A DNA stretch of 63,243 nucleotides, filler included, from Dugesia japonica (lineage: Eukaryota), in NCBI GenBank assembly GCA_001938525.1. It is 6 parts of 6 records of this genome, joined end to end, with 100 filler letters (N's around TTAATTAATTAA, not from the genome) between each part and the next. Parts side by side here need not be neighbours in the genome. Positions count along the whole stretch, not along the records: positions 44,157 to 52,396 come from MQRL01237978.1; 5 more parts are not named here. The stretch is one strand, 5' to 3'. Shown in pieces: positions 151 through 54,397 of the stretch. Within the stretch, counting starts at the first letter, position 1. Every line of letters begins with the position of its first letter. The notes under the pieces are model-generated. The model saw only the letters and a program-made list of their open reading frames with translations. It did no database searches and was not told the origin of the DNA. Position numbers and translations under genes: made by a program.

Positions 151-252
151 TAATTCTATAGAAACTACAAACATAATGAAATAATATTTAAGAGGAATAT
201 ATAAAATTTAAAGAGGAAAAAAACAATTATGAATAAATTATTCCTATAGAAA

Positions 253-3200
253 ATGAGTACTCAAATATTTAAATGTAATAATTGTCAAAAGAATTTTAAA
301 AATCTATCGGGGTTAAAAGCCCATGAAAGATCTAAAAAATGTAATACACCAATTGAACAATTTCAATGTCAAACATGTCGTAAAAAATTTAATTCTAAAA
401 ATAATTTAGATGAACATTTAAATGCAACAAAATGTGGAAATCGTGGAATTGTTTCATTATTCTGTGAAATATGTAACAAACGATTTTTAAGATAAAATCA
501 TGCAAGAACACATTACAATTCTGATAGACATAAAAAAATGTTACTTGATAAATCAAAAGTTAAAGAAGAAATTAATTTAAAAGAGGGAATTAGAGATATT
601 CTAAGTAAATATAAAAATTATGAAATTAAATATTTAAAAGGTGTAAAAGTAGAAATGAAATTAAATGTAGATGAAATATTTAATGAACCAATTAGAGATC
701 TTAACATATTTTATAAACAAGTAAAAGAAATTATTACTAAATATTTTAATTTCGCCAAACAGATAATTGTTAGTATGGGTGTTAAATGTAGATATGGAAA
801 ATCAATAAATAATGAATATGTTGAAAGAGATTTTACATCTTATTCAATCAATAAAAATGGTGTCAATGAAATATTTAATGAATTAGATAAATATATAGAA
901 GATAAAGATAGAGAGGGAAGTGGATGGTCAATGTCGCACATTATAGATTTTACATTAGATCTTTCTAAATATCAATCATTAGCAGGCGCGACTTATTGTA
1001 AATTGCCATTTAAAAAATCTGGTGTAATAAATATAGAAAATAAAGATGACAAATGTTTTCTATATTCAATTTTAGCCCACAAATATTTAAATTCTAACCC
1101 CACATATGTAAGTAATTACATTTCTCATTTATCAGATTTAAATTATAATGATTTTGAATTTCCAATGAAAATTAGTAATATAAGCAAATTTGAAAAATTA
1201 AATAATTATCAAATTAATGTGTTTAGTGTTAATGATAATAAGAAACTTGAACCACTGCACATTTCACATTATATAAGAAATCCTAATCAAGAAGAAAATA
1301 AATGTAACTTATTAGTATATAAAGATCACTATATTTTATGTAGAGATATAACAGTATTTTTTACATCAGCAAGTAGAAACACAAATTATCCATGCATCAG
1401 TTGTATGAATTGTTACTCAAGAGAAGCGGTATTAAATATACATCAAGATGCGTGTATTAGGCATAAACCTAATAACATTATTTTTGAATATAAAAATTAT
1501 TATTCATTTAATAAATTTTACCAGAAAAATAAAATTCCATTTATAATAATTGGTGATTTTGAAACATATACAAATTCTATTACTAAAAAACAAAAAGCTT
1601 TGTCTTTAGGTGTTTATTTAAAATCAGATTATCCACAATTATTAAAAAGCAAATATTATGAATTCTTGGGTGAAAATATTTATGATGAATTCTTTAAATT
1701 TTTAGAAGAAGTTAATAATGAATTAAATGAAATAAAAGATAACAAATTATTTAAAACATATTCAGGCACAAACCATCCAGAATATACATTTGACACTAAA
1801 TGTTATTATTGTAATAATTTAATATATGACACCCCAGTTAAGGATCATAACCATTTTAATGGTGAATTTAGAGGATGGGCATGTAATAAATGTAATGAAA
1901 ATGATCTATCAATTAAAAATTTATTTATTCCATTTTACTTTCATAACGCATCAGGTTATGATAATCATTTATTCTTTAGAGAACTAATGACTAAATTTCA
2001 AAGTAAAGTAAAAAAGATAATACCCCACAGTAGTGATAATTACATTTCATTTCAATTTAAAAATATAAAATTTTTAGATTCGGCTAGATTTTTACCTTTT
2101 ACATCTGTGGAAGTAATGGGTAAATTGTTAACTCAATCAAACAATTACCCAATATTAACATCATTTAATTTAAAACCTAAAAAGGCATTATTTCCCTATG
2201 AATATGTAAAAGGGGAAAATATTCAAGAAATAGAAGAATTATTAAAATCAAATCGAACACCAACTAGAAATGATTTCTTTAACACTTTAACTCAAAAAGA
2301 AATATCTAACAATGAACATGATGAATTTTTAATAGATTATTTAGATTATAAAAATATGTGGCAATACATGTTACACTACATGAAATTGGATGTATTAATA
2401 TTAACTGATTTTCTAGAAAACTTTAGAGACTCATGTATTAATAATATTTTAAAACTAGATCCGTGTTATTCATATTCAGCACCAGGTTATGCGTGGGAAA
2501 CTGGAATGCTAAATGTAAATGTTAAACTTAAATATGCCAAACCCGAAACTTATGATATTTTCTTAATGATTGAAGAAGGAATTAGAGGTGGATATTCTGG
2601 TGTGTGTGGCAAACGTCAAGTATTTTCACACAATAAAAATAAAGATCCGCATACTAGAGAAGTAAATAAAACACAGTTTGAAGATTTAATAAAAATTATA
2701 AATTCTGGTCAAATAATCTCTGATGAATATCTTGATGATATATTTGAAGACACATTTATAAAATATTTAGATGAAAATAGTTTATATGCCAGTTGTATGA
2801 CTAGACCATTACCAACTGGTGAACTTATTGAATGCTCTGGGTTGGGTCCCTCTGGGTTAGAATATGAAATGTCAAATGATAACATTAATTTTATTTATGA
2901 AGTCAATCTAGAATATCCACCAGAAATACATGATAGAACTAAATATTTCCCACTTGCACCAGAAAGAATTAATATTAGACCTTAGATGTTAACCAATTAC
3001 CAATTAAGTTTTAACAAGAAAATATTAAAAGATAATATTAAATTAACACTTAATCAATTAGACAAGAAAAATTATGTATGTCTAGGATCAACATTAGATT
3101 TATATTTAAAATTAAGAATGAAACTAAAAACAATTCATAAAAAAATTAAAATGCCAACATCTACATGGTTTAAAAATCATGTTCATAAATTAATTGCATT

Positions 3201-4053
3201 AAGAAAAGAATCTAAAAGAATAAATGACGTGTTTGGTGATTACATTTACAAATTAATGTTGAATGCGTTCTATGGTAAAACACTAGAAAATATCAGAAAT
3301 AGATGCAATGTTGAAATTGTAGATAATGAGAAAGATTATCAAAAGTTTGCAAGTAAAACGACTTTTAAATCAAGCAAAATTTTTACAATAAATGATTCTG
3401 ACGAAGCAGAAATTGCAGCAATGAATATTGAAAAAGGCAATTTAAAATATAACAAATTTCCATATATTGGATTCACAATACTTGAACAAGCCAAACAAGT
3501 AATGTATGATTTTATATACAATCAAATGGATCCATTAATTGGTAATGAGAATTATAAAATTCATTATTCAGACACGGATAGTATATTTGTTGAGATAAAA
3601 CATAAAGATAATTTAGAGTGATTACAAACTTTACTAGGTAATGAACTATTTCAGATGAAGGATGAATTACCCAATTCTGAAATAAATCAAGCCAATTTTA
3701 TAAAAGCAAAATCTTATGCTTATTCATATAGCGCAGCCCACACAGGACAAACGGGTTATGACTCTAGAAATAAAGGTGTTAAGAAAAATAATAAATTATT
3801 AATGCAAGATTTTGATAATGTATTAAAAGATCCAAATAAAATAATTAATGGGGTAAATTATTCTTTAAAATCAGAATTACACGAAATTGAATTAGTAGAA
3901 CAAAATAAAATAGCATTAATGGCATATGATGATAAGCGAATTATAGAAGATAATGGAACAACAACATGGTAACATGGAAATCAATATTATTGTGAAAAAT
4001 GTTACATGTGCCATTTAAGATTAGACAAAATAAACGGAACATTAAATTTTTAA
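253..4053 (+). pseudogene. Protein-primed family B DNA polymerase with N-terminal zinc fingers and an inserted EndoVII/HNH-like domain; 4 in-frame stops
   Basis: ORFs 253, 538, 2986 and 3655 share one frame, separated by TAA 493, TAG 2983, TGA 3619 and TAA 3970. Motifs: Exo GDFET, HNASGYD, YMKLDV; Pol YLDENSLY, KLMLNAFYGK, YSDTDS; C-terminal DDKR. CYYC..DHNH..GEFRGWACNKCN is EndoVII-like. Confidence 0.95.
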
Positions 4054-4062
4054 TATAGAAAA

Positions 4063-4639
4063 ATGACAGATAATCCAACAGAAGAAGAATTAGAAAAAAT
4101 AGTTAATTCTAAAAAATGTAAATCTGTAAAGATAAATGGTAAAAATTATTATATCTCTAAGAAAGTTAAAGATGAATTAAAAAAACAAAAACAAAGTAAA
4201 GAAGGTGGATTTGCATTTCTAGCTGCAATACCAGCAATAATTGGTGCGTTAGCAGGAACTGCTGGAATTGCATCTGGTATTGCATCTACTGTAGCCAGTT
4301 CAAAAGAAGCAATTAAACATCAAAAAGAGATCGCAAAGCTAGACTCTGTACAAAAAGCCCAAAACACAAACAACAGAAAGCACAACATTTGGTAGTGGTT
4401 TATATCTTAATCCATATAATGGTAATGGATTATATCTAAATCCATATCAAGGAAACGTAATACATAAATATTTTAAAAATATTAATTCTAACATGAAAGA
4501 TGTAACAAAAAACTTTAAAGATGGAATACAAATAATTAAAAATGGAAATGGTTTATATTTAGCACCATGGAAAAATGGCGAAGCCCAAAATGGGCAAGGC
4601 ATTTATTTAAATCCTTATAGAGTGAAACATGAATACTGA
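4063..4639 (+). pseudogene. Adenovirus pX-like virion core protein with GxG(L/I)YLxP repeats; frameshift near 4385
   Basis: KEGGFAFLAAIPAIIGALAGTAGIAS resembles the adenoviral pX hydrophobic tail. The shifted frame reads FGSGLYLNPYNGNGLYLNPYQG...NGNGLYLAPW...NGQGIYLNPY. A homolog lies at 46236-46797. Confidence 0.75.
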
Positions 4640-5602
4640 ACAAGTTAATGAAAGAATTAAAGAATTAAAAGCATTAATTAAAGCTCAACAAAATTATAAT
4701 GATTTTTTCTGTGGTAATGTTATTGAATCTAGAGAATTACAAAATAATTTATCCACTTTATAACAACCAACAATAAAAGCAATTGAAAAAAGTAAACCAT
4801 TAAAAGAAGAACCAAAAATAATAGATGATGAAATAATAGAATAACCAACAATAGATTTATTCACTAAAGATGTAATTACTAACATGTTAATATCTAAAAC
4901 TGTATTTCCATTTTCACCAAGTAATTTAACAGTTAATAATGAAGTTCTATCACCAACAATAATTCCTATAATTGATATGGTAATTTTAAAACCAGATAAT
5001 AAAAAAAAAGATTATTTTATGATAAAACAAACGTTGCAATATTTTTCTATTCAACTAAAGGTGTAAAACATTTAGCAATAAATAATACAATTTATGAAGA
5101 TGAATATGAAGATGAATTTGTTGATGAAATGATGGGTAATTTTAGTACTTCTTCTAAACTAAATAATCCTATAAAAAGGTTTATAGCTAAATATTTAACA
5201 GAAATAATAAAACCACCCGGGAGACATACTTATTGTCAATATTTAAAATCAATAATTGATTTAAATTTTAAATCAAAAAGTAGACAAACAAGTAAAATTG
5301 ATCCAGAAGATGTTAGTCTTGCTTTAGAAAAAGAAAAAGAAAGCACAAAGAAAGAGGGTGAAAGCACTACGCCGGCCTCCGGACAAGCTCTTAAGTACGA
5401 AGTCCATAAAGGACAAAATCTTAAATTAAATCCTCTAGCATTATTTGAAAAATTAACATTATTAGTTTCAGCTGTAAAATCTGGACATGATAATCTTAAT
5501 GAAGATATTAAAAAAGTATGTAAAAAATTAAAGATGATTGGTTTAATATCTAACATGATTTATGATAAATATAAAACTAAATATTTTTCATCTAAGAAAT
5601 GA
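4629..5602 (+). pseudogene. Conserved Polinton-associated protein of unknown function
   Basis: ATG 4629 is in frame with ORF 4884 (TAA at 4761 and 4842), then a poly-A frameshift near 5005 leads into ORF 5129. The C-terminus NPLALFEKLTLLVSAVKSGH...IGLI resembles the PxxLxxRLxLL..AGN motif I recall from Polinton ORFs. Confidence 0.6.
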
Positions 5603-6279
5603 GTCATCAATTCTTAGTTGTTGGTAAAGAACAAGATTTAGTAATGGATTTGAAATATCCTATAGAATTAGATTCTGAGTATGAACTTGGATTATTATGT
5701 TTTAGTGTTTACAATGTTATTTTTAATGTAACAAAATTAAATAATAAATTTACTATTGATAGTAAAGAATATACACTTGAACCTGGATCATATGAAGTTA
5801 AAGAAATATCAGAAAAATTAATAAAAAAATATGGAATAGAAGTTACACCCGATATATCAACTGCTAAATGTATCATGAATACAAAAAAGATATTAACTTT
5901 TGATGATAAATCTTTCTTACATAAAATCTTAGGTTTCTCTGTTAAAACTTATCAACCTGGTGAATACTTATCAGATAATAAAGTTGACATTTCAAATATT
6001 AATACAATAAATTTAACATGTAACATTGTTTAAGGTAATTATGTAAAATCTGAAACGGGTGAAACAGAACAAATGAATTTATTACATTCATTTCCAATTA
6101 ACTCAGTTCCATTTGGTTAAAAAATTTTAGAAAGACCATCAACAACAATTTATTCTAAAATTAATACAAATTACATTTCAAGATTAAAATTTAATGTTGT
6201 AGATGAACATTTTAACACTATAGATTTTAGCCAAGAACTAATTACAGTTTTAGTTCATCTACGTAAATATCGATTATAA
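5599..6279 (+). pseudogene. Minor capsid (penton, single jelly-roll) protein; 2 in-frame stops
   Basis: PIELDSEYELGL..FSVYN..FNV..NNKF, PGSYE, ILGF, CNIV*GNY, PFG*KILERP, VVDEHFNTIDF..ELITVLVHLR. TAA at 6031 and 6118. Confidence 0.85.
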
Positions 6280-6286
6280 GAAATAG

Positions 6287-6745
6287 ATGTCAGATTATAA
6301 CTTATTAGATTTCTTAAAAACATTTGGTAATAATACAACTACAAATTTTGATTTATATTCAATTGCAAACTTTTTAGATCTGGATTTAGAAATTTATATG
6401 AAGAATGAGATCCAGGAGCTTGCGACTGGTAAGGATTATATTTTTAATTATCAAAATTCAAATCAAAATGGAATACATTGGACCGCCCGTAAAGGCGCCT
6501 ATTATTTTGATTCTTTTGGTTTAAAACCTTTAGATTAAATTGAACCACATGTAAAAGTTTATAATGAAATTCAAGTGCAACATTTTGGAACTAAAATATG
6601 TGGTGTATTATGTATTTACTTTTTATATAAGATGGAGTGTAACGACAAAGATAAAACATTTGACATGATAATATCCGAAATGAAAGATTTATATGATAAA
6701 TTAGATATAAGAAAAGAGCGTGCGCAAAACCATAAAGGAGAATAA
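6287..6745 (+). pseudogene. Adenain-like cysteine maturation protease; 1 in-frame stop
   Basis: GIHWTA, YFDSFG, then past TAA 6536 QVQHFGTKICGVLC, giving the His-Asp-Gln-Cys pattern. Confidence 0.9.
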
Positions 6746-9672
6746 TGAATAAGTTTGGTGAAAGTATTCATGGTGTTAATACAACACAAATATAAAAAAC
6801 TATAGATGCTAAAATTAAAATATCAGATGCACAAAATGAAAGTAAATTTGTAAGTGAAACAGGTGACACAATAACAACTTTAAAAATAACAGAAGATCCA
6901 AAAGATCTCTCAGATGCGGTTAATTTAAAGTATATTAAAGAGTTAGAAAATAAATTACAAAGTCATGAATTTTTACTAAAGTTTTAAAGATTGATAAATT
7001 TACAATTAGTAAAACATATTTACAATTAAAGCCGATGAATTAAACAAATTAAATAATATTGATTTCTCTAAAGAACTTAATACTATAAATGATAAAATTA
7101 AAAATTTAACAAAGAACTGTAATTAGGATACATTTGGTAATATTGATTCTGATATTAAAAGAATAAATCAAATACTTTTCCCATTTAAAAGAATTGATTT
7201 AAGTTCTAATTTAAAAAAATTAAGTGATCGTGATTTATCTGGAGAACAACGTGGTGATTTAAGTAAGAAAATTAAAAAAGATATTTTAATGTTAGATAAT
7301 AAAATTATGAAATTACCTCTTGATTTGGATAAGAAAGCATTTGACCAATATTTAAATAATATTAATGTTATTAAATTAAATATAGAAGATTTTAGATCTA
7401 AAATCAATAAAATACTTAATGAAATTAAACCAATAAAATTAAGACAACGTAAAATTTTTGATGATAGAATTAATGTTTTATTTGAAACTTATAAAGAAAC
7501 ACTTTTGGATTTATCACTTAAAAGTTTAAAAGAAATAATTGATAATTACTTACCTTATGTTTTTATAAAAATCAACAAAATAATATTTCCAATTACATGT
7601 TATGAAAAACATGAAACACTTCCTCAATTTAGTGTTATGAGTAAATATGTTCACAATTTAGATTTTAAAAGAAAAGGTATAATGAAACTTGTGTCAAATA
7701 TTCAATATTTTTATCTTGAAGAATCTTTAACTATTATTTTACACACAAAGATAAATGAAAAAATTAGTATAGGTATAATTGGTTATTGTGATATTGAAAA
7801 TATTTTTTATACTATTAAAATTAACCAATTATACTATAGATTTATATATGTAAAATCACAAAGTAATTATATTGATATTTTTAGAGAAAGCACTGAAATT
7901 AATGAAGATGTAAATATAAATTTTATTGAGATAAATTTACCACAAGGAATTTATTTACAGGATTTAAGTGTTAGATTATTTAAAATAGAAATTGTTGATA
8001 GATTAAATAAAGAATTTAAAAGAATAAAACCAAATCTTCACAAAATTCATGTTGATAAAATTAATGTTTTATTTAAAAATAATAATATTAAAAGTTCAAA
8101 AGAAATAATTTATAATTACTTACCTTATGTTTTTATACCAAGTAATAATTCAATATTAACAAGTAACTGTTATCAAATTATTCCGCAATTTCATATAAAT
8201 GATCAAGTAAAGAATATAGATTTTAAAAGAAAAGGAAGAATGATAAATCAAAAGGGTTTTTATCTTGATGAATCTTTTTCTGTTAAATTAGATGTTAACA
8301 TTAATGAAAAACTTTGTATATTTATAGAAGGTATATGTGAAAAGCGATTTATTTACATTATTAAAATTAATAATATAGCAATAGCAACAGAATATTATTT
8401 TACACCTGAAACCGAAAAAATAGTAATTTATCGTGAAAGTACTGATATAATAAAGATGTAAAAATAAATTATATAGAAATAATTTTACCATAAAAAATTT
8501 ATTTAAATCATTTAATTATTAAAACATATAATTTTAAAATTTATGAAGAATTAAGTAAAGAATATAAAAGAATAAAACCAACCCTACATAAAATTTATAT
8601 TGATAAATTTAATATTTTTTCTAAAACTTATAACACTAAAAATATAAAACATTTAATTGATAATTACTTGCCATATTCAAATACATCCTCCAGACAAATA
8701 TTATTTTCAATAATTCTTATGAAAAAAATGATAATCTTCCTTATTTCACTGTTATAGAGAAATATGTATATGATTTTGATTTTATGAGAAAAGGTGGAAT
8801 TAAACATACAACATTTAATGATCATTATTTTAATATTAAAGAATCTTTAATTATTTCTTTACATACAAAATTAANTAGAAAAGTTAGTATAAGTATAGAT
8901 GGTTTTTGTGAAGTTCCAAAATTTAATTATATTATTAAATTTAATAAAATTGCAGTATCATTTTTATATGTTAAACCTAATGATAATCTTGTTAACATTT
9001 ATCGCAAGTGATGAAATTATGAAAGATAATAATATAAACTTTATACAATTAATTTTCCAAAAAGGAATTTATTTAATGAATTTTAATGTTAAATTTCTTG
9101 TGGATAAATTTCCTGAATTATTAACAAAAGAATATGAAAAAATAAAACCAGAACTTCATAATATTCAAATAAAAAGAATTGATCTTTTAATAAAAGAATA
9201 TCTTGAAATTGGTGATGAGTTAACATTAAAAAGTATAAAAGAAATAATTGATAATCACATACCATTAGACACAGCGTATTATGAAAATCCTGATTTGTTC
9301 TGTTTTGGGGTGGTTTTCAGAGAACAACTAAAACCTTTTTATCGTATTAATGAAAAAGTAGAAAGAATAGATTTTAAAATAAAAGGAAAAACATTAAATT
9401 TAAATAAAATGCCACATTATTATATTGAAGAGTTGTTTGTTATATCTCTAAAGACAATTTCTACTTTAAATAGTTTTAAATATGATGTGGTGGGTTATAC
9501 CGAACTTAATAAATTTACTTATACTATTAAAATAAATAATATTCCTAAATCATATATTCAAGAAGTATTTAAAAATAATTTTTTTATTGAAATAAAGTTT
9601 AATGAAAATATTAACTTTATAGAAATAACTTTACCTAGAGGAATTTATTTAACGAATATTTTTCTTAAATAA
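6745..9672 (+). pseudogene. Large putative fibre/receptor-binding protein: stalk-like N-terminus, coiled coil and four tandem domains of about 185 aa; several stops and frameshifts
   Basis: N-terminus MNKFG...FVSETGDTIT...DPKDLSDAVNLKYI resembles fibre/stalk motifs. The repeat unit IKP..H.I..D.IN.L...IIDNYLP...DFKRKG...Y.IKIN...NINFIEI.LP.GIYL starts at about 7424, 8024, 8572 and 9142. Confidence 0.65.
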
Positions 9673-9673
9673 A

Positions 9674-10291
9674 ATGGGGAAAATATATCCTAGTTTGTCT
9701 GAAGACTATACAAATTGTCCGGAGTCCAACTTTACTATTTTAGATTTAAAAAATAAACTGTCAATGTCAAGAATTAGAGATTTTGAAAATGACTTATACT
9801 TTATAAAAGATAAAATTAGACATTATAAGAAAATACATAAAAGATGGAACAGAATAGATTCAGGTATAAAATATACACAAATAGGTGTTAGGGCTATAAT
9901 TGGAATTGGTGGTGTTATATTAATTACTCCAATTGGAATTGCACTTGCTACAATTGGTATACCAATAATTACTGGTGCAATTTCCATGTTACCTGTAATT
10001 GGAACATTAAACACTTCACTTATTAAATCGAGAAAAGAAAAATATGAAAAGTTAATAATTAAGCTTGAGGCCGTTAAAAATAAATTATTTCTATTTTAAC
10101 AGAAAGCAGTACATGAGGAAATATTAACTGATGATCAATTATTAATTTTTAAAAATATGATAAATGAAGTTCATGAATTAATATCTGGACATAAACATGC
10201 AAGCGAAGCGACCCACCGTGAAAGTTTAAAAATGTTAGTTGAAAATCAAACTAAAGTTATAAATGAAATGAAAATAAAGCTAGGAATATAA
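9674..10291 (+). pseudogene. Two-TM membrane protein; 1 in-frame stop
   Basis: IYPSL N-terminus, basic helix and a long Gly/Ile-rich hydrophobic hairpin. The frame continues past TAA 10097 (QKAVHEEILTDDQL...) to 10291. A homolog lies at 44157-44310. Confidence 0.7.
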
Positions 10292-10343
10292 AATGTAAAA
10301 TATAAATTTGACACACACGCGTCTCAAATTTTATACTTAAGAA

Positions 10344-11141
10344 ATGGAAGATGTAATAAGTAAAATTGAACAAGTAATACCTAAAATTAAAAATGGTGAA
10401 AAGTTAAAAAAAGAATTAAAAGGTTTAATAATAACACTTGATAATTTAATTAGTTCTGAATCAGAAGATGAAATATTTATTGAAGAAGAATATATTGAAA
10501 TGAAACATGAACAAGATGAAACTGATAATGAAATAGAATCAATTGTATCTGAATCTGAATCTGAAGGCGCTGAGCTGGACTCCGTACAATCTGAATCTGA
10601 ATGTCCAGAGGTTGGTGAAGCGCAAAATCAAATAGTTAGATTTAACATTCAAGAATCAGATAATTTAGTAATTATTACTAATCCTGATAATTTATCAGTA
10701 TTAAAAAGAAATACATTTAAAGAATTACCAGATTTAGAAGAATTTGATCCACCTAAATTTTATATGAAAATTAATCCAAAAGCAACACGAACTATTCAAA
10801 TGGCAAGTGGACAAATTAAAGATGTAGAAAATAAACAATTAGTTAATAGGCAACTGATATTACCATTACCAATTGCTAAAAATGAAAAAGATACAATAAA
10901 AAGAACAATAAAAGATGGAAAAACAATAAGAGCAAAATATTATCCAACAGATAATGAAGATGATGTTAAAATGGCAATAAATAAACCAACTACTTTTAGA
11001 ATGGAACTTTATAATTCATTTAATAGCAACAAAAGATTTAAAGTTCCATTAAAAGATATTAAAATAGAAGAATTTAGAGAAAATTGTGCAGTATTATCAA
11101 CAGAAAGTCCAACTGAATTATTACATGAATATAAGAGATGA
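10344..11141 (+). CDS. Hypothetical element-encoded protein with an acidic Ser/Glu tract
   Basis: Uninterrupted 265-codon ORF in the Polinton array, with an ATGA overlap to the next gene. No motif recognised. Confidence 0.7.
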   Translation: MEDVISKIEQVIPKIKNGEKLKKELKGLIITLDNLISSESEDEIFIEEEYIEMKHEQDETDNEIESIVSESESEGAELDSVQSESECPEVGEAQNQIVRFNIQESDNLVIITNPDNLSVLKRNTFKELPDLEEFDPPKFYMKINPKATRTIQMASGQIKDVENKQLVNRQLILPLPIAKNEKDTIKRTIKDGKTIRAKYYPTDNEDDVKMAINKPTTFRMELYNSFNSNKRFKVPLKDIKIEEFRENCAVLSTESPTELLHEYKR

Positions 11142-11495
11142 ATAATCAATTAGTAATGTTTAAACGTGGAACATTATATTCATATGCTATGTTAGGTGCA
11201 ATATTATACACTTTAAAATTAAGATTTAAAAGTGAAAATAAGAAAAAACATTATAATGATTTTTTAGATTATATAGCAGGATGTGGATATGCTCATACAA
11301 TGAGTTACATTAATAGATAAATTAGATTTGCTAAGATAGTAAGAAACGTGGCCGGGTATTATTGAAAGTAATTTATCATTTAGAAAGATTCAAGAACATT
11401 TTAATGATATTGAAGATATAATAGCTTCTGAACATCAAATAATGTTTGATATAAATAATCGAATAGAAGCACGAAGACAAATCACCCAAAAGTAA
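11138..11495 (+). pseudogene. Hypothetical small element-encoded protein, disrupted
   Basis: ORF 11138-11320 continues past its TAA and a frameshift as WPGIIESNLSFRKIQEHFNDIE..., ending at TAA 11495. Confidence 0.45.
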
Positions 11496-11566
11496 ATTAC
11501 CTAAGGGGGACCCATCTAAATTTCATCAATTAAATGTAACACCCAAAGTGACCCACCTAAATTTCA

Positions 11567-11755
11567 TCAGTCAAACAAATCATCTAACATCTCATCTGAT
11601 TCTTTATTTAAGTAAAAATAATTATATTTAACTTTCCAGTGGAGATTTACTTCATAATCATATTCCAACTTGTTAGTAAAAATATCAGTTTTATTTAACT
11701 TGAAAAAAATATAACAATTAGAATTATTTCTGATAGAGTTTTTATCTAAATGGTA
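11567..11755 (-). pseudogene. C-terminal fragment of the A32/FtsK-type packaging ATPase of element A, cut by the gap
   Basis: The minus strand reads YHLDKNSIRNNSNCYIFFKLNKT..EYDYEVNLHWKVKYNYFYL, which aligns with 46863-47099 (DKNSIRKNSYCFIFFKLNKT..EYNYNVNLRWKTKYNYYYL). Confidence 0.85.
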
Positions 11756-44156: not shown

Positions 44157-44310
44157 AAACTGTTCCAGTTAGTCCAACAACTGTTCCTATAAATATTTCT
44201 GTAAATCTAATCGAAGTATCTAATCTTCTTTATCTTTTATAAATCTTTTTATAATGTTTAATGTTTTCATCAATAAAATATAAATCAGATTCAAAATCTA
44301 CAATTCGTAA
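44157..44310 (-). pseudogene. Fragment of the 2-TM protein homologous to 9674-10291
   Basis: LRIVDFESDLYFIDENIKHYKKIYKR*RRLDTSIRFT versus SRIRDFENDLYFIKDKIRHYKKIHKRWNRIDSGIKYT. Confidence 0.8.
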
Positions 44311-46235
44311 TCATGGCCTCATTGTATTACTGAGAGATTGTACGTTGGAGATACGGATCGGTTTACTAGAGAGCTCCTCTTTCAGTGATTTTATCTGAGC
44401 TAGAAACGACTCCCGAGCTCTCTCAATTTGGCACTCGAGAGACTGGATCCGTGTATTTTTATGGCTAGTTGGAGACGAGACATTTCATTATCCGCTTCCA
44501 AATTACTTATCATATCACGAGTAACTTTGGCCTCTCGATATAATATCTGCCGGATTCGTCAATGTAAGGCCAGACATAACATGGTCTCCTCAGCATTCTT
44601 TTCTGTTGAGGCATCTACGTTATTCAAATTTAAATAATTGATACAAATTAAAATTCAAGAACATTAAAAGAAAATGTAAATCTTAAGAATTATTAAGTTG
44701 ATTTCTTCGGCCTGCGGCCTAATATGTCTTCGTCCCCGCTTCTGTAGTACGAACCAGAGAAGATTTCCACTAAAGTGGCCATCTCCCTTAGTTCCCACTA
44801 TTGCGGAGTTCTAGCAGGAACTTCCCTATCATGGTTTGAAACATTAAAATTAAAAGTTTATTATTCATTACTTCTTCACCGTTCAATTGATCATATTAAA
44901 AACACAGCTTTTAGAATTATATAACTATACTATTTCTTAGCATTTTAAGAAAAATTCATTTACATTGAAAGCTTAATTAAATAACGAAAAACAAAACAAA
45001 AAATCAATTATACAATTCAGTATGCAATTTATATTCATAAATCGAGCTCCCAGCCCCCGCACTTTCATCTCATTTCTTGTTCCTATTCTTTGAAACTATT
45101 TTCACTACCGCAAGTTAATTCATTCTCTTTTTCTCTTAACTCTATCCATTTCACCCGAATACTAATTTTATTAATAGAATTCTTTAATTTTCTAAAATTC
45201 GATTTTTTTCTTTTAGAAAAGATACATTATGGTGTTTTTGTACTATTTTCCGACTTCGATTTGATCTAATTTATTTAACGGATTTCTCATTCTAATTTGC
45301 ATATTATTTCAGGATATTATTCTCTCATTTAGCAAAAACACATTATGGTGGAGCACAGTTTGAGTGGCAATCGGGTACTCGGATCTTACGATATATTGTA
45401 TAAAAGTCAATAGAGTAATATTGCACAAATAAAACAAAAATTTACCTTTTCCAATTATCCGTTATTGTCCTTGGCTAATATAATTAACTTTTAAGATTAT
45501 TCTGATATAATTAACTTCGGAAAGGGTACAGCTATAATTAATTTTGATAATGGTACTCGATGAAAGAAATAATAAAAAATTAAATTGTAACTCTGATGAT
45601 TTTCTCGGTGCAAACGAGTTTTATTCCTCGTTTGCACCCCAACTTTCATCGATTCATTTGTTCGCCAATCATTACTTTGTTTTGGTGATTCTTTCCTTCT
45701 GATTGGACGATACTACTTAAAAATCGAGGTTGCACGTCGTTTCCTATCCGATTGACTTTTTGTCCCACACCAACTCGGAACTGACTTCCACGTCATCAGT
45801 CACCTCGTGTGACCAATGATAGTTACTGTGGAAAAGTCATTGTCTAGCAGGAAATGATTCATCTGTTTTATATATATAGGGTTATTTATAATAAATAAAA
45901 CGGGTCGCAGAGACCCTTCTAATATATTATTATATTATCGTAGATTATTTTTATTATTTATTTTCTCATTTACTCTTCATACATCTACTTTGTATTTCTG
46001 TATCTTAACTTTAGGGTCTCATACGCCCGATTTTCAATATTTGACATTTCCCAAAAGTTATAAATAATAGTTATAATGATAATAATTACATAGTAATAAT
46101 GATAATCCTGTATGTAATAATCAATTTTCTGGTCCAGACCATCAACTTTGTGTTTACTCTTCACTATTTTTGGAAACTTTTACCAATCTTTAAATACTTT
46201 ATTACTACAACAATTTTTTATGTCCTAGCCCAACA
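44311..46235 (-). repeat. Truncated long LTR-like insertion (family 2, TGTTGGGCTAG start) nested in Polinton B
   Basis: The minus strand begins TGTTGGGCTAGGACA at 46235 and carries CCAAT boxes. It separates the pX-like and 2-TM genes. No TSD found. Confidence 0.55.
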
Positions 46236-46797
46236 TATTTATCATGAGAATTTTCACAAGGTTTTAAATATAAACCATCACCATTTACTTTAACTTGTAT
46301 TCCATTTTTAAAGTTTTTAGTAATCTTTTTCAACTCTGAGTTAGGTAAACTATTTTTTAAATATTTATGTATTGCACTTCCTTGATAAGGTTTTAAATAA
46401 AGTCCAGATCCATTTCTAAACCTTCTTTTTCTAATTTTTCTATTTGAATTAATTTTTCTCTTTTCTGTAATTCAACTAATTCACTTTCTTTTTGCTTTTT
46501 AATTACATCTCTAGAATTGCTAACTGTACTTGCCATTGCAGTAGCTGTTCCAGAAACTGCAGCAGCAGCTTCAGCCGCAGTTTTTATTCTAGATATTATT
46601 CCTGGAATTAATCCTAATAAAGGAAATAATCCACATTCATGTTATTTACCACTAGCTTGTGCTCCAGAGGCTAATTTCTTTTTTATTTCTTCTTTAACTT
46701 TATTATTAATCCAATAGTTTTTACCATTAATTTTTACAGATTTACATTTATTTGCATTTACCAAATCAATTAATTCTTGTTCTTATACTGAGGACAT
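46236..46797 (-). pseudogene. pX-like virion core protein of element B
   Basis: KCKSVKINGKNYWI, GLFPLLGLIPGII, GSGLYLKPYQG.AIHKY and KNFKNGIQ..NGDGLYLKP align with 4063-4639. Confidence 0.8.
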
Positions 46798-46862
46798 TTT
46801 CTTTTAAAAAATAATAAAAATATTCTTATACAAATCCTAAAGGGTCCCATTCAAATCTTCTT

Positions 46863-47631
46863 TCACTTCTTCACCTCTTTCTCTTCTTCGAATAATTCTT
46901 CTATTAAAACTTCAGCTTCTCTATCTAAATAATAATAATTATACTTTGTTTTCCAACGTAAATTTACATTATAATTATATTCCATTTTGCTTGAAAAAAT
47001 GTTTCTAAATAAATCATAATAGACATTATCTTTGCATGTTTTGTTTAATTTGAAAAATATAAAACAGTAAGAATTTTTTCTAATTGAATTTTTATCCAAA
47101 TGAAAATATGTTTGAGAAATATAAATAACATTTTAATTTAAATGTCTTCTTCTAGTAAAATAACTTTTTTGAATTTCTTGATCCATAAAATTTACAACAT
47201 CATCAAAAGTTATTAAATTCTTTTTTACCTTGGATAATTTATCACAAGGAATAATTTCATTTGCTTTATTTCATAAAACTACGTTTATCGTTCTTGGTTT
47301 GTTTATTAAATACTTTTTTTATAAACCATTCAATAGCTTGCAAAGGAATAACTAACGAATCAGGAACTATATTTTGATGTTCAAAAATAAAAATAATATC
47401 TTGTTTTGATAAACCATTTTCAAAACGATGATAAAGTAATTGTAATTCAAATTTATTTATAGTTGTAGAATAAATTATCAAAGTATCATAATCTAAAAAC
47501 TCTGGAGTTAATAACATTTTCATTACAAAACATTTTTACCTGATCCTGAAGAAACAATTATTAATAATTTAAAATTAGATTGAAAGATTTTATTATTAAA
47601 TGTTTTTATTTTTATTCCAAATTAAAGCCAT
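46863..47631 (-). pseudogene. A32/FtsK-type DNA packaging ATPase, frameshifted
   Basis: Degenerate Walker A LLIIVSSGSGK, Walker B LITFDD, then FTRRRH, ISQTYF and IRKN. Confidence 0.9.
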
Positions 47632-47715
47632 TTTTATTAAAAAAAATTAAGATTTGTTTTTATGATCAAAAGTTATTTTTTTATCAAAGAATTCTTTTAT
47701 TTCACTTTGATCTAT

Positions 47716-48117
47716 TTAACCATTCATACGTTTATCATTTATTTTATTTACTTTTAAATTTAATATACATATATATGGATCCATATTATTAAAATTAAAA
47801 TTTTTTAAATAGTTGATTAATATTGCAACTTCTTCATCTATTTTCTTCAGACCATGTTCATATTTTTTATCATCAGGTTTATTTATAATTATCCACTTCC
47901 AAAAGTAATCTGGTGGATTTTTTAAATTTACAGCTGCAAGTGATTTCTTCAAATATTTATTTTCTTTTGATTCTTTTTTAAATTCTTNTTTAAATTCTTC
48001 TTTTAATTCTTCTTTAAGAAGTTCTTTTAATTCTTGTTTAATTTCTTCCTTTAAAGTATTTTTTGATTCTTCATTTAGAACACCTTTTAAAATAAAATCG
48101 AAAGAAATTTCACTCAT
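47716..48117 (-). CDS. Hypothetical coiled-coil (KEEL/KEEF repeat) protein of element B
   Basis: 133-codon ORF tightly packed between the integrase and the ATPase. Confidence 0.55.
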   Translation of the reverse strand: MSEISFDFILKGVLNEESKNTLKEEIKQELKELLKEELKEEFKXEFKKESKENKYLKKSLAAVNLKNPPDYFWKWIIINKPDDKKYEHGLKKIDEEVAILINYLKNFNFNNMDPYICILNLKVNKINDKRMNG

Positions 48118-48126
48118 TTTAATTTA

Positions 48127-48960
48127 TTAAATTAAAATTTTTAAAACAGTTTTCTGAAGTTCATTACTTTAAAATCTACCTAAAATATTTTCATTTTCTA
48201 AATCAGTAATTCAATAAGTAAAAGGTTTAGTATTATATACTTTTGTTACTACATATATTTCATTCGTCCATTTAGCTGTAAATCCTTTTTCGAATTTGTA
48301 TTTATATTTAAAGATTCTAACTCTATTTCCAATTTAAAACTTTTGTTTAAAAATAAAGTTATCATTTTCATGATTATGATCTTCAATTATTTGTTTTATA
48401 GTTTCAGGATTTTCTGATGCTTCTTTTAGTGTTGTTTTTATACTAGAGTGAATTGTATTATTATAATCATTTACAATTTTATCTAACAAGTTTTTATTCC
48501 ATTTTCGATTCCCAACTTGAGTAAAATATTTCCACATTTTATTTTTTAAAGTTCTAATAAATCTTTCAGAAAAAACTGATTTACCCTAATTTTCTGTATG
48601 GTATAAATTAATATCATTTTCTTTAAGAAATTTATCAAAGTACTTTGATCTAATTGCTGATTCTTTTATCAAACCAAATATAATTTGAAATTTTTTTCAT
48701 AAGCTTCTCGTAAAGATTCTTGACTTTTATTTTTCATTGGAACACAAAAACCAAATCTAGAATATAAATCAATACAAACTAAAATATATCTAAAACCATG
48801 GGACCCATTGGGATCAACAGATTTTTTAACCATATCAATAATATCACAACCCCAAGTATTATCTTTTTCTTTTATCATTACTTTTAGGAGATGTTTTGGT
48901 TTTCTATAATCTTTATGAAGTTCATTTGATAATATTGAACTATTGAAAGGAGTTCCTTGT
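48127..48960 (-). pseudogene. Retroviral-like (RVE, c-integrase) DDE integrase of the Polinton
   Basis: NELHK, WGCDIIDM, YILVCIDLYSRFGFCVPMKNK, WFDKE, ERFIRTLK, YNNTIHSSIK, FEKGFTAKWTNEIY. No chromodomain seen. Confidence 0.92.
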
Positions 48961-49049
48961 TTCTCTTTATTTTCTTTATTTTTATTATTTTTTCAATTTA
49001 AATCCTTACTATTTTTATTAGAGTGAAAAGTCTTCGCTTCGCTCAGACT

Positions 49050-49507
49050 TACATCAGCACCTAAAATAATTTTACTTTTCATTGCTAATTTTACTAAACT
49101 TCTTTGTATTTTTTCAGAAGTAGTTGGATTAAATTATGAATTAAATTTACATCAGATAAATGTCTATCTCTAATATTTTCAGATTTATAAGATAAATCAT
49201 GTTTTAAAGCCACTTCATCAACTCTATTAATTGGTTCTTCTCCAGAATCTAATCTTAAATCTAATCTTGTTCCTGGTCCAGTATAATTCTGTTCAAACAA
49301 ATGTCTTTCACCTGGATACTTTTCCCCAGTAAATGGTTTTAAAATTGCTGAAGTTAATTTAGAAGATTAAAGATCGCCTTCAGCTTGAGCTTCGCGATCA
49401 CCACTGATGTTTTCACATATTTTTAAATGTCTAGCTTTATTTTTTCTTAGTAATATTTTGTTACAATTTTCACCAATACATTTATTATTCTGAAAGACTA
49501 TATCCAT
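49050..49507 (-). pseudogene. C2HC zinc finger plus parvovirus VP1u-type phospholipase A2 domain, probably the N-terminal part of the integrase ORF
   Basis: CIGENC-x11-HLKIC, then in the same frame across TAA 49367: PGERHL..NYTGPGT...PINRVDEVALKHDLSY...RHLSD. Confidence 0.85.
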
Positions 49508-49569
49508 TTTATATATTTTAGAATTAGAGAATTTTAGGACTACTGGAGTAGTCACAAATATTAACCCAA

Positions 49570-50869
49570 ATTTTCACCTCGTTTATTTTCAATCATAACA
49601 ATTTTAGAATTGGATAATTTCATTTCAATATGTTTTTCTTCTAATATACACCAACTCTTTTAAATCAGTATCTTTAGTTATGTGTAAAGTTATATCTACA
49701 TTATTAATATTTAAATGATCATCTTGGGAACTAACATCAAAACAAAAGATTAGGTACAAATCACCAAACTCTTGTAGTGATAACTGAGGTTCTGTTAAAA
49801 AGTCTTTACAACAATTTAAATAATTTAAATAAGGAAAAATTATTTCATTATTATCTATATTAAATTTACATTCATTAATAGGGTAATGTTTATTGTTTAA
49901 TTGTACTTGAATACTTTTAAGAGAATATTTTGTTGTAACTTTTTTTCATTTTTCAATAGTTTAACTATTTTGTTGTATAAATAAATTATTATTCTTTTGA
50001 TAACAAATTTCTGAATCTTTTACACCAATAAATATATATCTTGGTTTATAGGTTAAATTACTTAGTTTAAGTGAATAATATTTTCAGAATCTAATGTAGT
50101 TTTTGAAACAATTCTGTTTAAAAATGAAACTTGAATAGATTTATTTGTATTAATTCTTTCTAAAAGAATAACTTCTATTTTTAGAACTAATTTACATTCT
50201 GGTATATGTAGTTCAAGAGTTATTAATTTTTAAGTGGCAGTTGTGCCTGTATCTCCATAAAATATTAATTTATCATTTATTTGACGATTACAAGTAAACT
50301 CAATTATTGTATTATTTAATAATCTATTATAACATTGTAAAATCCAAATAAATTTTTAATGGAAAATAACCTTCAAATTTCTTTTTTGAGTTATAAAGTT
50401 TCTTTCTTTTATAAAAACCAAGATTTGCATCAATACCTTCTACATCTAAATCTTCTTTATTTGTATCTGGTAATCAACCTGATAATTCACCATAAATATT
50501 CTTATAAGTTGAACTAGTTGTTATAAAATTTAACATTGTTGATGCAATTCCAGGGTCATTAATTATTTCTATACCAGAAGATCCTAAAGTTAATCTAATT
50601 GTTTAAAATAAACTTGGAAACTAATTATTTTCCAAAGTTATTTTATCTTAATGTTTATCACCTTCACCAAATTCTAAATTAACTTTATAATACATCATTG
50701 AATTAGAAATTTCTAATGGGTTGGATGATTGTAAAGATTGAAAAGTTATATCTCCAGAAGAAATTAAATTAGTTATTGTTCCGGCTGAGGGTGAAATTCT
50801 TAAAACATCAGTTTTCAAAAAAATATGTTGAAAATTGATATTATTATCAAGATCAAGTTTTGTAACCAT
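49570..50869 (-). pseudogene. Double jelly-roll major capsid protein with many stops and frameshifts
   Basis: ITLENN.FPSLF..IRLTLG..IE.INDPGIASTM, SG.LPDT, LELHIP, KPRYIFIG, IQVQLNNKHYP, IFCFDVSSQ. About 430 codons; 3' end approximate. Confidence 0.85.
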
Positions 50870-50937
50870 TTTCTTTAGTAATAAAATAAAAATTAATTTT
50901 TTAAAATCAAAAATTCAATAAATTAAAATCTAATTAC

Positions 50938-51131
50938 GAATAGTAGAGAAAATGCGGTTTTAGCCGAGAAATTTATTTCCGAAATGTGCGACGGCGTCCG
51001 CATTAATATTTTTAACAACAAACCCTTTTTATTTTTTTATTCTTATCGCTTGCGCTCATGTACTATCGTTTATGCCCTTTGCCTAGTTTGGAGCTACACC
51101 CTCGGCTAAAACCGCATTTTCTCTATTACTC
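50938..51131. repeat. 31-bp inverted repeat (29/31 match) with AGTAGT-type Polinton terminal signature
   Basis: 50938-50968 GAATAGTAGAGAAAATGCGGTTTTAGCCGAG versus the reverse complement of 51101-51131, GAGTAATAGAGAAAATGCGGTTTTAGCCGAG. Confidence 0.9.
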
Positions 51132-51157
51132 ACCGATGCGATCACATAGAGATTGTT

Positions 51158-52140
51158 AGTAGTAAGATAGTAGCGGACTGGCTCACCTGTGTGAGTAACG
51201 TAATCGGATTATTACGTAAATGAGCCAGTATTTTTTATGTATTTAGGCGGCGAACCAAATTTATATGCGATTACATAAGTTTTGCTTGTATTTTTTGAAA
51301 GGTTTGCCGAATTATTTTCAAATTTTAAGCATTTAGGTAGTAGAATTTTTCTGTGCATTTAGTTGGGAAAATCTTTATAGGCTTTATAAACGCTAGAATT
51401 TTTACTGTGTATTTAGTTGGGAAATTTTTTTTCCAATGATTTTGTTGACAAATATTTTTTAGGCTTTTTAAGCGGCGGAATTTTTTCATATGTATTTAGT
51501 TAACAATTTATTCGGTGAGGTTGAATATAGTCGATTTTTGGTTGGTTCAGGTGAATTTTTGGTTGATAATTTCCTCGGGATTGGTCAGTTTGGGTAATTT
51601 AGTGGAATGTGGTCAATTTTTTACTAGTTTTGGTGAAATTGATCTTATTTTTTCTCGGTTTCGGTTAGTTTTGGTAATTTTTGGAAGATTTAGTCAATTA
51701 TTTACTTGGTTTAAGCAATAGTGGTCAAATCTTTCCTCGGGATTAGTTTTATGGGTAATTTTTGGAAGATTTGGTCAAATTTTTCATTGGTCTGGTTGAA
51801 TTTTTGTAATTTTTGAGAGATTTTGTTGATAATGTCTTCGAGATTGGTCAATTTGGGTTGAATTTTTACAGAAATCGTGTAAAATGTTAAATTTGTTTAA
51901 ATTTTCGAGTTTTTCAAAATTATTTTAAACTTTTGTGATAAATTGGTGAAATTAGGTCATTTTTGTTTAAATTTTCAGATTTTTTAAAGTTTTAAATCAA
52001 ATTTTTATGGGAATCCGGTAGAATATCTGAAATTTCAAAAATTTTAGAAAAAATCTTTTGTCGAGATTTTTACATCAATCGATGCATAATTCGATGAAGA
52101 TAATTTTTCTCAAATAAAAATTTTCGAAAAAATTATTTCT
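51158..52140 (+). repeat. Candidate Polinton TIR of a further element: AGTAGTAAGA start, hairpin and T/G-skewed imperfect repeats
   Basis: Hairpin 51177-51229; GAATTTTT..TGTG(C/T)ATTTAGTT x3; T(T/C)CGGGATT(G)GT-type repeats x3. Confidence 0.45.
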
Positions 52141-52219
52141 CACCTTCACAAATAATAACCATGTCTATAAATATATCTATTAGATACAAAATTTTCCGCA
52201 GATTCCAAATATATAAGCC

Positions 52220-52396
52220 TGTTGGGCTAGAACACAAAAACGGGTGAAATAATAAAAGATGTAAAGAATTTGAAAGGTTTACGAAACTAGAGAAGAGTAG
52301 ACACAAAATTGATGAACTGAATCAGAAAATATTATCAAGAAATCATTATTCTTATTATTATAGTCATTATTATTATTATTATGGTCATTATTATTA
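52220..52396 (+). repeat. 5' start of LTR family 2, cut by the gap
   Basis: TGTTGGGCTAGAACA, matching 46235(-) and 27531(-). Confidence 0.5.
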
Positions 52397-52496: not shown

Positions 52497-52780
52497 ACGA
52501 ATGGTGCAAAAAAAATTTTTAAAAAAAAATTTTAAAAAAAAAATTTTAAAAAAAGATAAAAAAACAAAATAAAAAAAAATTTTAAAAAAAATTTAAAAAA
52601 AAGATTAAAAAAAAACAGAAAAAAAAGATAAAAAAATAAAAAAAAAGATTAAAAAAAAGATTAAAAAAAAGATTTAAAAAAAAGATAAAAAAAAAGATTA
52701 AAAAAAAATTTATAAAAATCTATTTTTAGTGACAGGGGGGTAGAAAAAGGGGAGGTTCAGTGCGGACATGTCTCACTACT
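52497..52780 (-). repeat. Candidate Polinton TIR end (5'-AGTAGTGAGA) with A-rich AAAAAAAGATT repeats
   Basis: The plus strand ends TCTCACTACT at 52780, after a GC-rich block and an A-tract array. Confidence 0.4.
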
Positions 52781-52900
52781 TACTAGTTATATTACTAGTT
52801 ATATTACTAGTTATATTACTAGTTATATTACTAGTTATATTACTAGTTATATTACTAGTTATATTACTAGTTATATTACTAGTTATATTACTAGTTATAT
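52781..52900. repeat. Perfect minisatellite (TACTAGTTATAT)10
   Basis: Ten exact 12-bp units read directly. Confidence 0.95.
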
Positions 52901-54397
52901 TTAGTTACTAATATATACTGAAATTAACTTCTACTAGGAATTAATTTGTTTTTATCATTCTAATAGTTAATTATATTGTTTTAAAATACGCTTTAAGAAT
53001 AAGAATAATTTTCTTTAATACTAGAAGTTATTATTAATATTTAAAATTTACCTGGTGTTAAAATTCTAAGATTTTAGTATAAAAGACTTCCGACAAAAAG
53101 TTTAATTTATAAAGAATGCCGCTGTGGAAAAAAAATAGGAAATGCTGGTCTAGTAATTAGATCTGGTCCGTTCTGGAAATTAAAAATCTTGTCATATCCT
53201 GTAACTCTCTCTCTCTCTCTCTCTATAACTATTGTTCTGATCGTGTGAACACTGATTTGATATCAATCTAAGACAAACATTTGCATTAAGGTATAGTCGT
53301 TATTACTTAAATTCAATTTGAATTGAGAAGTAAATTACCGAAAGAAAATTATTCCAATTTCTCTATGAATTGACGAATTCATTTAATATCAGAAAAGTTT
53401 AACGATGAAAATAATAAAATAGTTTTAAGTGTAATATGCAGTATAAAGGCTATAAAATCATGATTATTTTGCAGCTACTTCAATCAAAACTTGTCTAATT
53501 CCCTGATTTATGAAATTGATGCATTTTAATTCAATAAAATTCAGATTACAATCATTTTTCTTTGTAAAATTATGTGTGTAACTTTAAAGAAAATATCTGA
53601 AACTAAGAATGACGAAGAAAATTATAAATAATATAAGGCTATAAATTTTTTAAATTCATCCATGATTATTAAGGAAGAAAAGTTTTAATTTGTAAATTAC
53701 TATACAAATAAAAGTAAAATTATTTTATAAATTTTTAGTTTTTTGATGCATTAAATGGATGTGACATAAAATTAAGTGACTAAATTGATCGCATTTTACC
53801 TGAAACGTTGTCGTGAAAATTGAACAATATAATGAAAGAATTCAAAACAATGAGTCAGTGGAAAAAATTTCTTCTACGGAATTTGATGCAAATTTTGAAT
53901 TTAAAATGAATGATAGTTTAAACAAAAGAATGAAGAATGCATTGTTGTGAAGGACAATGCAGCAGTTAAACACGAAAATATATACATATCTTGTAGTTTA
54001 ATAGATCAATTACATAAAAGTTTGGAAGATCCTTTACAACATATAAAATTTGGTTTGAATAGATCAACCTAAAAAAGTATAACATGTAACCCAGCAGACA
54101 TTGCATTTTGGTAAAAGGAAAAAAAGAAAGTTTCATCCATGAAATACCATCTTGTGAAGATTCATTGATATTTATTAAATTGTTGAACGGCATTTGTTGC
54201 GAAGGAAAAATATTATTAATAAGGCTAAATTGATTGTTACAATAATGATAAAAGAATTTATAGATATTTTAAAATTGGTATGTTGGTAAAATTAGGCGTA
54301 AAAATGACATATAAATTTAAGAATTCCGGAGAGAAAGAGATACATAGAAAAGCTAAAGCCATTTAAAATCAATGGGGTGTGAGATGATTATACTTCC

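Follow-up and report, generated by a model that had tools for sequence, protein, structure and literature searches.

The stretch of DNA analysed here (the window; 63,243 nucleotides, filler included, from Dugesia japonica) is AT-rich eukaryotic DNA with N gaps and Gypsy-like retrotransposon remnants. The gene under study lies on the minus strand of a gap-bounded segment (44157-52396), with a decayed major capsid protein (MCP) gene upstream and an ATPase gene downstream. It begins with an N-terminal leader (49370..49507), which carries a zinc-finger-like Cys/His pattern, has no Pfam match and ends in AEGD, where intact relatives have GGD. The leader is followed by a phospholipase A2 (PLA2) of the parvovirus type (49059..49366; PF08398; motifs YTGPG, HDLSY and D), which follows a stop at 49369-49367 and contains a frameshift near 49130. 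Next come a linker (48927..49058), defined by frame reading, which shares its frame with both flanks and contains TGA 48995-48993, and an rve integrase (48127..48926; PF00665 and comparison with relatives) consisting of a catalytic core and an SH3-like C-terminal domain, without a chromodomain. Intact relatives show what has decayed here: a Polinton/Maverick gene in which a zinc-binding leader, PLA2, linker and rve integrase form one polyprotein.

The signposts listed in the first-pass annotation of this DNA are all in the sequence: ATG 49507, TAA 49369-49367, YTGPG (49285-49271), HDLSY (49201-49187), the frame change near 49130, TGA 48995-48993, NELHK (48926) and WGCD (48854). The names YTGPG, HDxxY and D we take to be those of the parvovirus PLA2 motifs, and the proposed kinship was borne out by Phospholip_A2_4 (PF08398), which passes the Pfam cut-off on the window PLA2 piece (E=6e-7); rve (PF00665) reached E=7e-4 on the N-terminal integrase piece, below the Pfam cut-off. 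In domain-profile scoring the real frames gave 84 bits (PLA2) and 196 bits (integrase), while the best of 600 shuffled frames gave 5.2 and 3.9. The window PLA2 is 58% identical to that of P0064 and the integrase 71% identical to that of P0062 over 173 aa, and by a count made by eye the window linker has the length of the open linker of P0064. Past the frame change near 49130 the frame reads SLVKLAMKSKIILGA, then TGA 48995-48993, and from ILGA to NELHK there is no in-frame ATG and one out-of-frame ATG (49054); the nearest positions with an ATG in frame are in the last PLA2 helix (49082) and past NELHK (48878). The leader had been called a C2HC finger, and its pattern C-x4-C-x11-H-x3-C is indeed there, but Pfam recognizes none and the five intact relatives shown have C-x2-C-x11/12-H-x5-H (C2H2) in its place. 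With a zinc finger in 14 of 73 fusions, this module is accessory to the fusion.

Decay of the window copy is heavier than had been reported. One frameshift, the TAA and the TGA are as described, but there are two further frameshifts (the three lie near 49130, 48690 and 48665) and four further stops, all in the integrase part (48127..48926). The stops stand at 49369, 48995, 48588, 48336, 48213 and 48171, five or six of them internal depending on where the tail ends, the last being just ahead of the conserved NELQK end. The window copy is dead, and the fusion it records is real. Two local features were considered as recoding signals and rejected: the frameshift near 49130 lies inside PLA2, where relatives are open, and at T TTA AAT, ahead of the TGA, the -1 frame stays open for a few codons only. 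A single-sequence structure model of the window N-terminal piece (pLDDT 34) was discarded.

The claim that PLA2 and integrase form one protein can be judged by whether less-decayed relatives keep both in one open frame. It passes, since the nearest intact relatives do so. A search with the PLA2 piece (proteins of at least 159 aa) gave 58 matches, 13 of them with both PF08398 and PF00665, including the top two; a search with the C-terminal half of the integrase (proteins of at least 323 aa) gave nine, the best six being fusions with identity up to 71%. In P0062 and P0064 the complete layout (zinc finger, GGD, PLA2, Gly motif, linker, rve integrase) is a single ORF, and the linker is open in all four nearest relatives, P0062-P0065. 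HDxxY is intact in 61 of 73 fusions. After the SH3-like end, a chromodomain is absent from the window and from P0062-P0065, and present in P0049 and P0087. The AlphaFold model of P0004 (mean pLDDT 68) has PLA2 and integrase as separate domains, with low-confidence linkers at 26-48, in the place of the leader, and at 148-180; both Gly motifs border them. Its PLA2 domain matches rice PLA2 (2wg7_A) at a middling Z of 7.0 (rmsd 4.0, 93 aligned), and its integrase matches foamy virus integrase (4bac_A) with Z 18.5 (rmsd 9.9, 230 aligned); the matches listed by Foldseek were filled by integrases.

Because both protein searches favour long proteins, an integrase tree of 204 rows was built, of which 125 are integrase-only. 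The window integrase falls in an 8-row subclade (support 0.995) inside a 42-row clade (0.999), whose only three non-fused rows are N-truncated fragments and whose full-length members are all fused. Across the tree as a whole, fusions are scattered. We consider the reality of the fusion to be close to certain.

Several observations weigh against reading the fusion as the general state of these genes. The length limits of both searches favour fusions, as does selection in the locus scan (best 80 of 104). Among 82 loci, 20 are fused, 32 have the domains in different frames, 2 have the same frame with a stop, 9 are PLA2-only with room downstream and no integrase in it, and 19 are cut by contig ends. 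Three loci have an adjacent but separate integrase that carries a Met of its own, and at three others the integrase lies 2.5 kb from PLA2; 27 Lottia gene models have PLA2 without rve, and P0237, a close PLA2 relative, ends just past PLA2, on a 614-bp contig. On the integrase side, 117 of the 150 best profile matches are integrase-only. The arrangement is thus labile and not universal: a stop after PLA2 with a separate integrase start, named at the outset as what would speak against a fused gene, is not found in the nearest intact relatives.

Two single cases stand beside this survey. L002, a 17.6-kb Polinton-like contig, carries a stand-alone unit of DUF5679-type leader plus PLA2 (9800-10372), with no integrase match in the 13 kb examined. 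P0068, an integrase on a 1-Mb contig, starts with KLGLGL, left over from a PLA2 C-terminus, and this hints that eukaryote genomes commonly contain fused or -1 forms.

Other copies in the host bear on the state of the window lineage. Each of three DNA runs yielded some 8,500 short contigs that align on 2.5 kb, which indicates a large diverged family, although depth is no measure of copy number. In run X1 the depth differing from the window was 6289/6467 at 49369, 8837/8906 at 48588, 5970/6043 at 48336 and 17318/17610 at 48213; since nearly all copies in the three runs differ there, these four stops are private decay. Positions 48960-48999, TGA 48995 among them, were skipped as a repeat in the contig alignment. 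Four distinct linker-spanning joints with their intervening letters (among the 12 of 63 matches listed) change the length by 54, 72, 96 and 99 nt, all multiples of 3 by hand count. One might suppose that in this lineage TGA 48995 is the true PLA2 stop and that the integrase is either read through to or started separately from ATG 48878: the TGA is in frame, within the stretch skipped in host contigs, and ATG 48878 precedes WGCD. However, Met 48878 is not kept in P0062-P0065, which are open across the linker, and a start there would drop the conserved LAxELH helix; no clean same-frame-stop junction was found among 54 two-domain loci, and the four host linker variants listed bypass the stretch with the TGA while staying in frame. 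We therefore regard such separate or readthrough expression as very improbable. RNA reads across 48960-49100 had been suggested as a check; run X13 gave 66 reads on both strands, 48 of them less than 90% alike, with none in bin 48928-49011. That no read bridges the window linker counts on the opposing side, and the run is uninformative on expression.

The junctions themselves carry a second conserved feature. Of 73 distinct junctions, 66 have GG or GxG no more than 13 aa from the PLA2 end, compared with 6 of 1202 background windows; upstream of PLA2, GG was found in 30 of 56 testable cases and GG|X or GX|G in 33 of 56. The consensus of adenain is (M/I/L)xGG|X or (M/I/L)xGX|G. Adenain cutting at AEGD and ILGA, as first suggested, does not hold up in that form, the strict consensus being present in only 10 of 73 junctions on the PLA2 C-side and 5 of 56 on the N-side. 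AEGD has drifted from GGD, and ILGA from GG/GxG, and on comparison of the motifs the Gly sites match those of the mavirus protease rather than the strict adenain rule: the GG|X / GX|G pattern of mavirus-type Ulp1 substrates is present at exposed domain borders, at the motif level only. According to the parts of PMC6048507 consulted, the integrase occurs in mavirus particles together with a hydrolase that has been cleaved, and GG|X or GX|G is where the mavirus protease cuts.

By analogy, the PLA2 part may bring the polyprotein into the virion, and a viral Ulp1-type protease may cut at the Gly motifs that flank PLA2; the latter would then help to breach the endosome, and the freed integrase would arrive with the genome, so that integration would need no new gene expression. 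Virion packaging with protease cleavage, part of the original interpretation, is plausible given the mavirus precedent, and we lean towards it, with some reserve. The fusion could instead be real and remain uncut or unpackaged, with PLA2 serving as a tether or an intracellular integrase domain, or with the joint reflecting mere genome compaction. The rarity of the strict adenain consensus (10/73) is in keeping with this, as are the stand-alone PLA2 of L002, which ends in the same GxG, the shortest PLA2-integrase linker of just 5 aa, and the scatter of fused forms over the tree. It is nevertheless unlikely in our view, given the retention of GG/GxG in 66 of 73 junctions, the mavirus precedent, the frequency of GG/GxG in the small core-like proteins of L001 and its absence from the major capsid protein of the same element, and a class of -1-linked genes that makes sense mainly as ratio control.

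This class emerged from the 54 two-domain loci, ten of which (L011, L032, L034, L035, L041, L060, L067, L069, L072 and L080) were set aside because the domains lay too far apart or had incomplete ends. In the remaining 44 adjacent PLA2-integrase loci the integrase is in frame in 20, in the -1 frame in 22 and in the +1 frame in 2, the excess of -1 over +1 (22 vs 2) having p=4e-5 and standing at 18 vs 2 when counted by 85% clusters; clustering at 85% leaves 17 fused, 18 -1, 1 +1 and 1 mixed. The 2658 nt of junctions contain 24 frame changes, the 41342 nt of domains only 6. An A-run of at least 6 marks the junction in all 22 -1 loci and in 1 of 20 fused ones; 50 A/T runs of at least 6 lie inside domains, none of them broken. 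An in-phase slippery heptamer (X XXY YYZ) occurs in the overlap of 18 of the 22 -1 loci (15 of 18 clusters) and 2 of the 20 fused loci, leaving four -1 loci without a canonical heptamer, and in 20 of 22 the first AUG in the integrase frame lies past the first catalytic Asp. Fourteen pairs of -1 loci gave dN/dS of 0.03-0.18 for both domains at dS of 0.3-1.8, two integrase values not being estimable; both halves are under purifying selection. The 15 -1 rows of the tree form one chromodomain-bearing clade (0.989) with a few in-frame members mixed in, apart from the window clade. These loci are Polintons: an ATPase adjoins most of them, and PolB, MCP and penton are all present in L001. That locus appears more decayed, as does L039.

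Could one-base loss in the A-runs of in-frame fusions, by mutation or assembly error, have produced this class repeatedly? Such loss yields exactly the -1 offset, the A-run is there in 22 of 22, and A-runs do mutate, as shown by the near-identical loci L021 and L047, which differ in run length and frame (in frame in L021, +1 in L047). There is also no stem-loop signal downstream of the slip site (mean z +0.2, n=18, by ViennaRNA, which is run without pseudoknots), and in L084, L039 and L082 the catalytic core is preceded by a Met; these points, with the L021/L047 difference, count against a programmed link. On the other hand, of 25 junctions with an A-run of at least 6 only one is in frame, the 50 domain A/T runs are unbroken, and the same offset is seen in 18 clusters and in assemblies with separate names, also between pairs whose synonymous sites are close to saturation, with the integrase under purifying selection. 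Unprogrammed loss is thus improbable. Splicing or a near-cognate start might instead supply the integrase: a GT-AG intron of at least 40 nt is possible in 8 of 22 junctions, and CTG, GTG or ACG is present in the integrase frame in 13. With 14 junctions lacking such an intron and nine lacking such a codon, and with the universal A-run accounted for by neither, we give this route hardly any credence. The A-run in 22 of 22, the absence of an AUG ahead of the Asp in 20 of 22 and purifying selection in both halves together indicate gag-pol-like recoding, and we consider it very likely that the -1 link is programmed. Since no stimulatory RNA structure was signalled, ribosomal and polymerase slippage are not divided by these data and stand even.

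Two further observations concern these junctions. In one lineage (L021, L047, L038, L042, L048) junction A-runs of 8, 9 and 10 go with in-frame, +1 and -1 forms, and the run is possibly a phase-variable tract or a switch between fixed fusion and recoding. L084, found with an integrase-only query, has a -1 overlap at an A-run and its own Met; there a protease-like frame (4786-5301) begins right where the integrase frame ends, on the same strand.

Retroviral gag-pol links a structural protein upstream to an enzyme in the -1 frame, without an AUG of its own, through -1 frameshifting at a slippery A-rich site; in potyvirus PIPO the polymerase slips. The -1 class shares the slippery A-rich site and the AUG-less -1 enzyme with these systems, but belongs to a double-stranded DNA virus and shows no detectable 3' stimulatory structure. 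In this separate clade the link between PLA2 and integrase would be conditional, and recoding would yield much PLA2 and little PLA2-integrase, like gag and gag-pol. Whether the two clades together represent a widespread, gag-pol-like branch of Polintons, in which PLA2 is a virion-targeting entry protein that takes the integrase into the capsid, either by fixed fusion or by a structure-independent -1 slip at an A-run that sets the ratio, with a protease freeing both at the Gly motifs, seems to us an evenly balanced question. Taken as a whole, the explanation favoured here is probably the right one, and the earlier interpretation as a whole is partly supported.

The neighbours of the studied gene, all on the minus strand, fit the same kind of element. 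A decayed major capsid gene occupies 49600..50914, its upstream extent judged by eye; PF21738 matches 49625-49945, only a fragment, with E=1.6e-5 and 24.7 bits, just under the cut-off of 27. On the 3' side of the integrase lie an uncharacterised frame of 135 codons without a Pfam match (47716..48123), a decayed packaging ATPase with a GSGK Walker A remnant (46863..47621), recognized by tblastn with the L002 ATPase (match at 47240-46923, E=3e-9), and decayed small core-protein-like genes with GxGLYL repeats (46205..46782), which share 74-78% DNA identity with 4080-4576 of a sister element and could be called pX/cupiennin-like by resemblance only. Of the Polinton/Maverick (Polintoviricetes) hallmarks, the segment thus has the rve integrase and packaging ATPase, and MCP at a sub-cut-off score; an MCP gene also adjoins the fused relatives L006, L007 and L021. 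PolB and penton gave no match within 44157-52396, and both are present in the sister element at 250-11750. A 160-bp inverted match (46073-46235 vs 52220-52379, 76%) flanks the element and abuts an assembly gap, being either a decayed terminal repeat or a dispersed repeat. A fragment beside a gap (44194-44306), 73% like 9771-9883 of the sister element, suggests that the studied element once reached further left.

The sister element (250-11750, plus strand) is a second, related Polinton with a near-intact C2H2-ZnF/PolB gene (Endonuclease VII insert), penton and a protease-like frame recognized by eye only; its ATPase is on the opposite strand and runs into an assembly gap, and its gene order is unlike that of the studied element. 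At 7127-9672 (+) it holds four to five tandem diverged repeats of ~550-590 bp, coding for a repeated protein domain without a Pfam match at cut-off, possibly the fibre or receptor-binding protein of this Polinton. Elsewhere, a perfect 12-bp tandem repeat in 10 copies stands just past an assembly gap (52780-52901). No second PLA2 or matching integrase was found elsewhere in the window, and annotated phages gave no match to the studied gene.

The studied element is probably a member of Polintoviricetes group 2, in which, in the portion of the source available (10.64898/2026.06.19.733378), a phospholipase domain is described as common. Like other Polinton/Maverick RVE integrases, its integrase has the shared DDE core, the SH3-like tail and MCP and ATPase neighbours; it differs in the PLA2 at its N-terminus, and the window clade lacks the chromodomain that the -1 clade has. 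Polinton PLA2s have been proposed as virion entry proteins in what was accessible of PMC4642659 and PMC8502044. Adintovirus PLA2X (Starrett et al. 2021, PMC8502044, from the parts consulted) is likewise a parvovirus VP1-type PLA2 in a Polinton and a proposed membrane-active virion protein, but it has a gene to itself and a pX-like domain at its C-terminus, whereas the window PLA2 is followed by a linker and rve integrase; the word 'fused' is absent from the main text of that paper. The adintovirus integrase has a C-terminal chromodomain according to the sections seen of PMC11071296, unlike that of the window. The sections of Buck et al. (PMC11071296) consulted propose -1 shifts for adintovirus Penton and Hexon-Adenain and none for PLA2-integrase. 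In mavirus, a protist virophage, the MV02 integrase and MV13 hydrolase are both in particles and have protease sites GG|X and GX|G, as proposed here, but they are two separate genes and the hydrolase is of the alpha/beta type, not a PLA2 (PMC6048507, again in part).

PLA2 is treated as a separate gene (PLA2X, CAP) in the consulted parts of PMC8502044, PMC4642659, PMC3671162, PMC5803895, 10.64898/2026.06.19.733378, PMC11071296, PMC12567637, PMC6048507, PMC11161782 and PMC8097293. We did not find the PLA2-integrase fusion or the -1 junction described in this literature or by literature searches, subscription papers, Repbase and figure labels (for example, the maps in the Starrett supplement) being outside their scope. 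The domain architecture is already in databases, since the ESM Atlas auto-names clusters of 184, 111 and 72 members 'Phospholipase A2-like/Integrase core domain-containing protein' (scores 0.82-0.85, leads only); these automatic labels cover the same domain pair and not the frameshifted form. The Polinton PLA2-integrase polyprotein gene is apparently undescribed.

The -1 class has a practical side, in that gene callers start its integrases past the first catalytic Asp, so that annotation may list intact elements as truncated or dead. Two wider questions are still open: do Polintons form particles, and by what route does a DNA virus that must integrate deliver integrase to the cell it enters next? 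Joining the integrase to a virion entry enzyme would offer a concrete route for the integrase, with exact predictions as to cleavage sites, trans-frame peptides and ratio, and the dead copy in the window has led to what is probably a gag-pol-like recoding signal in its sister clade.
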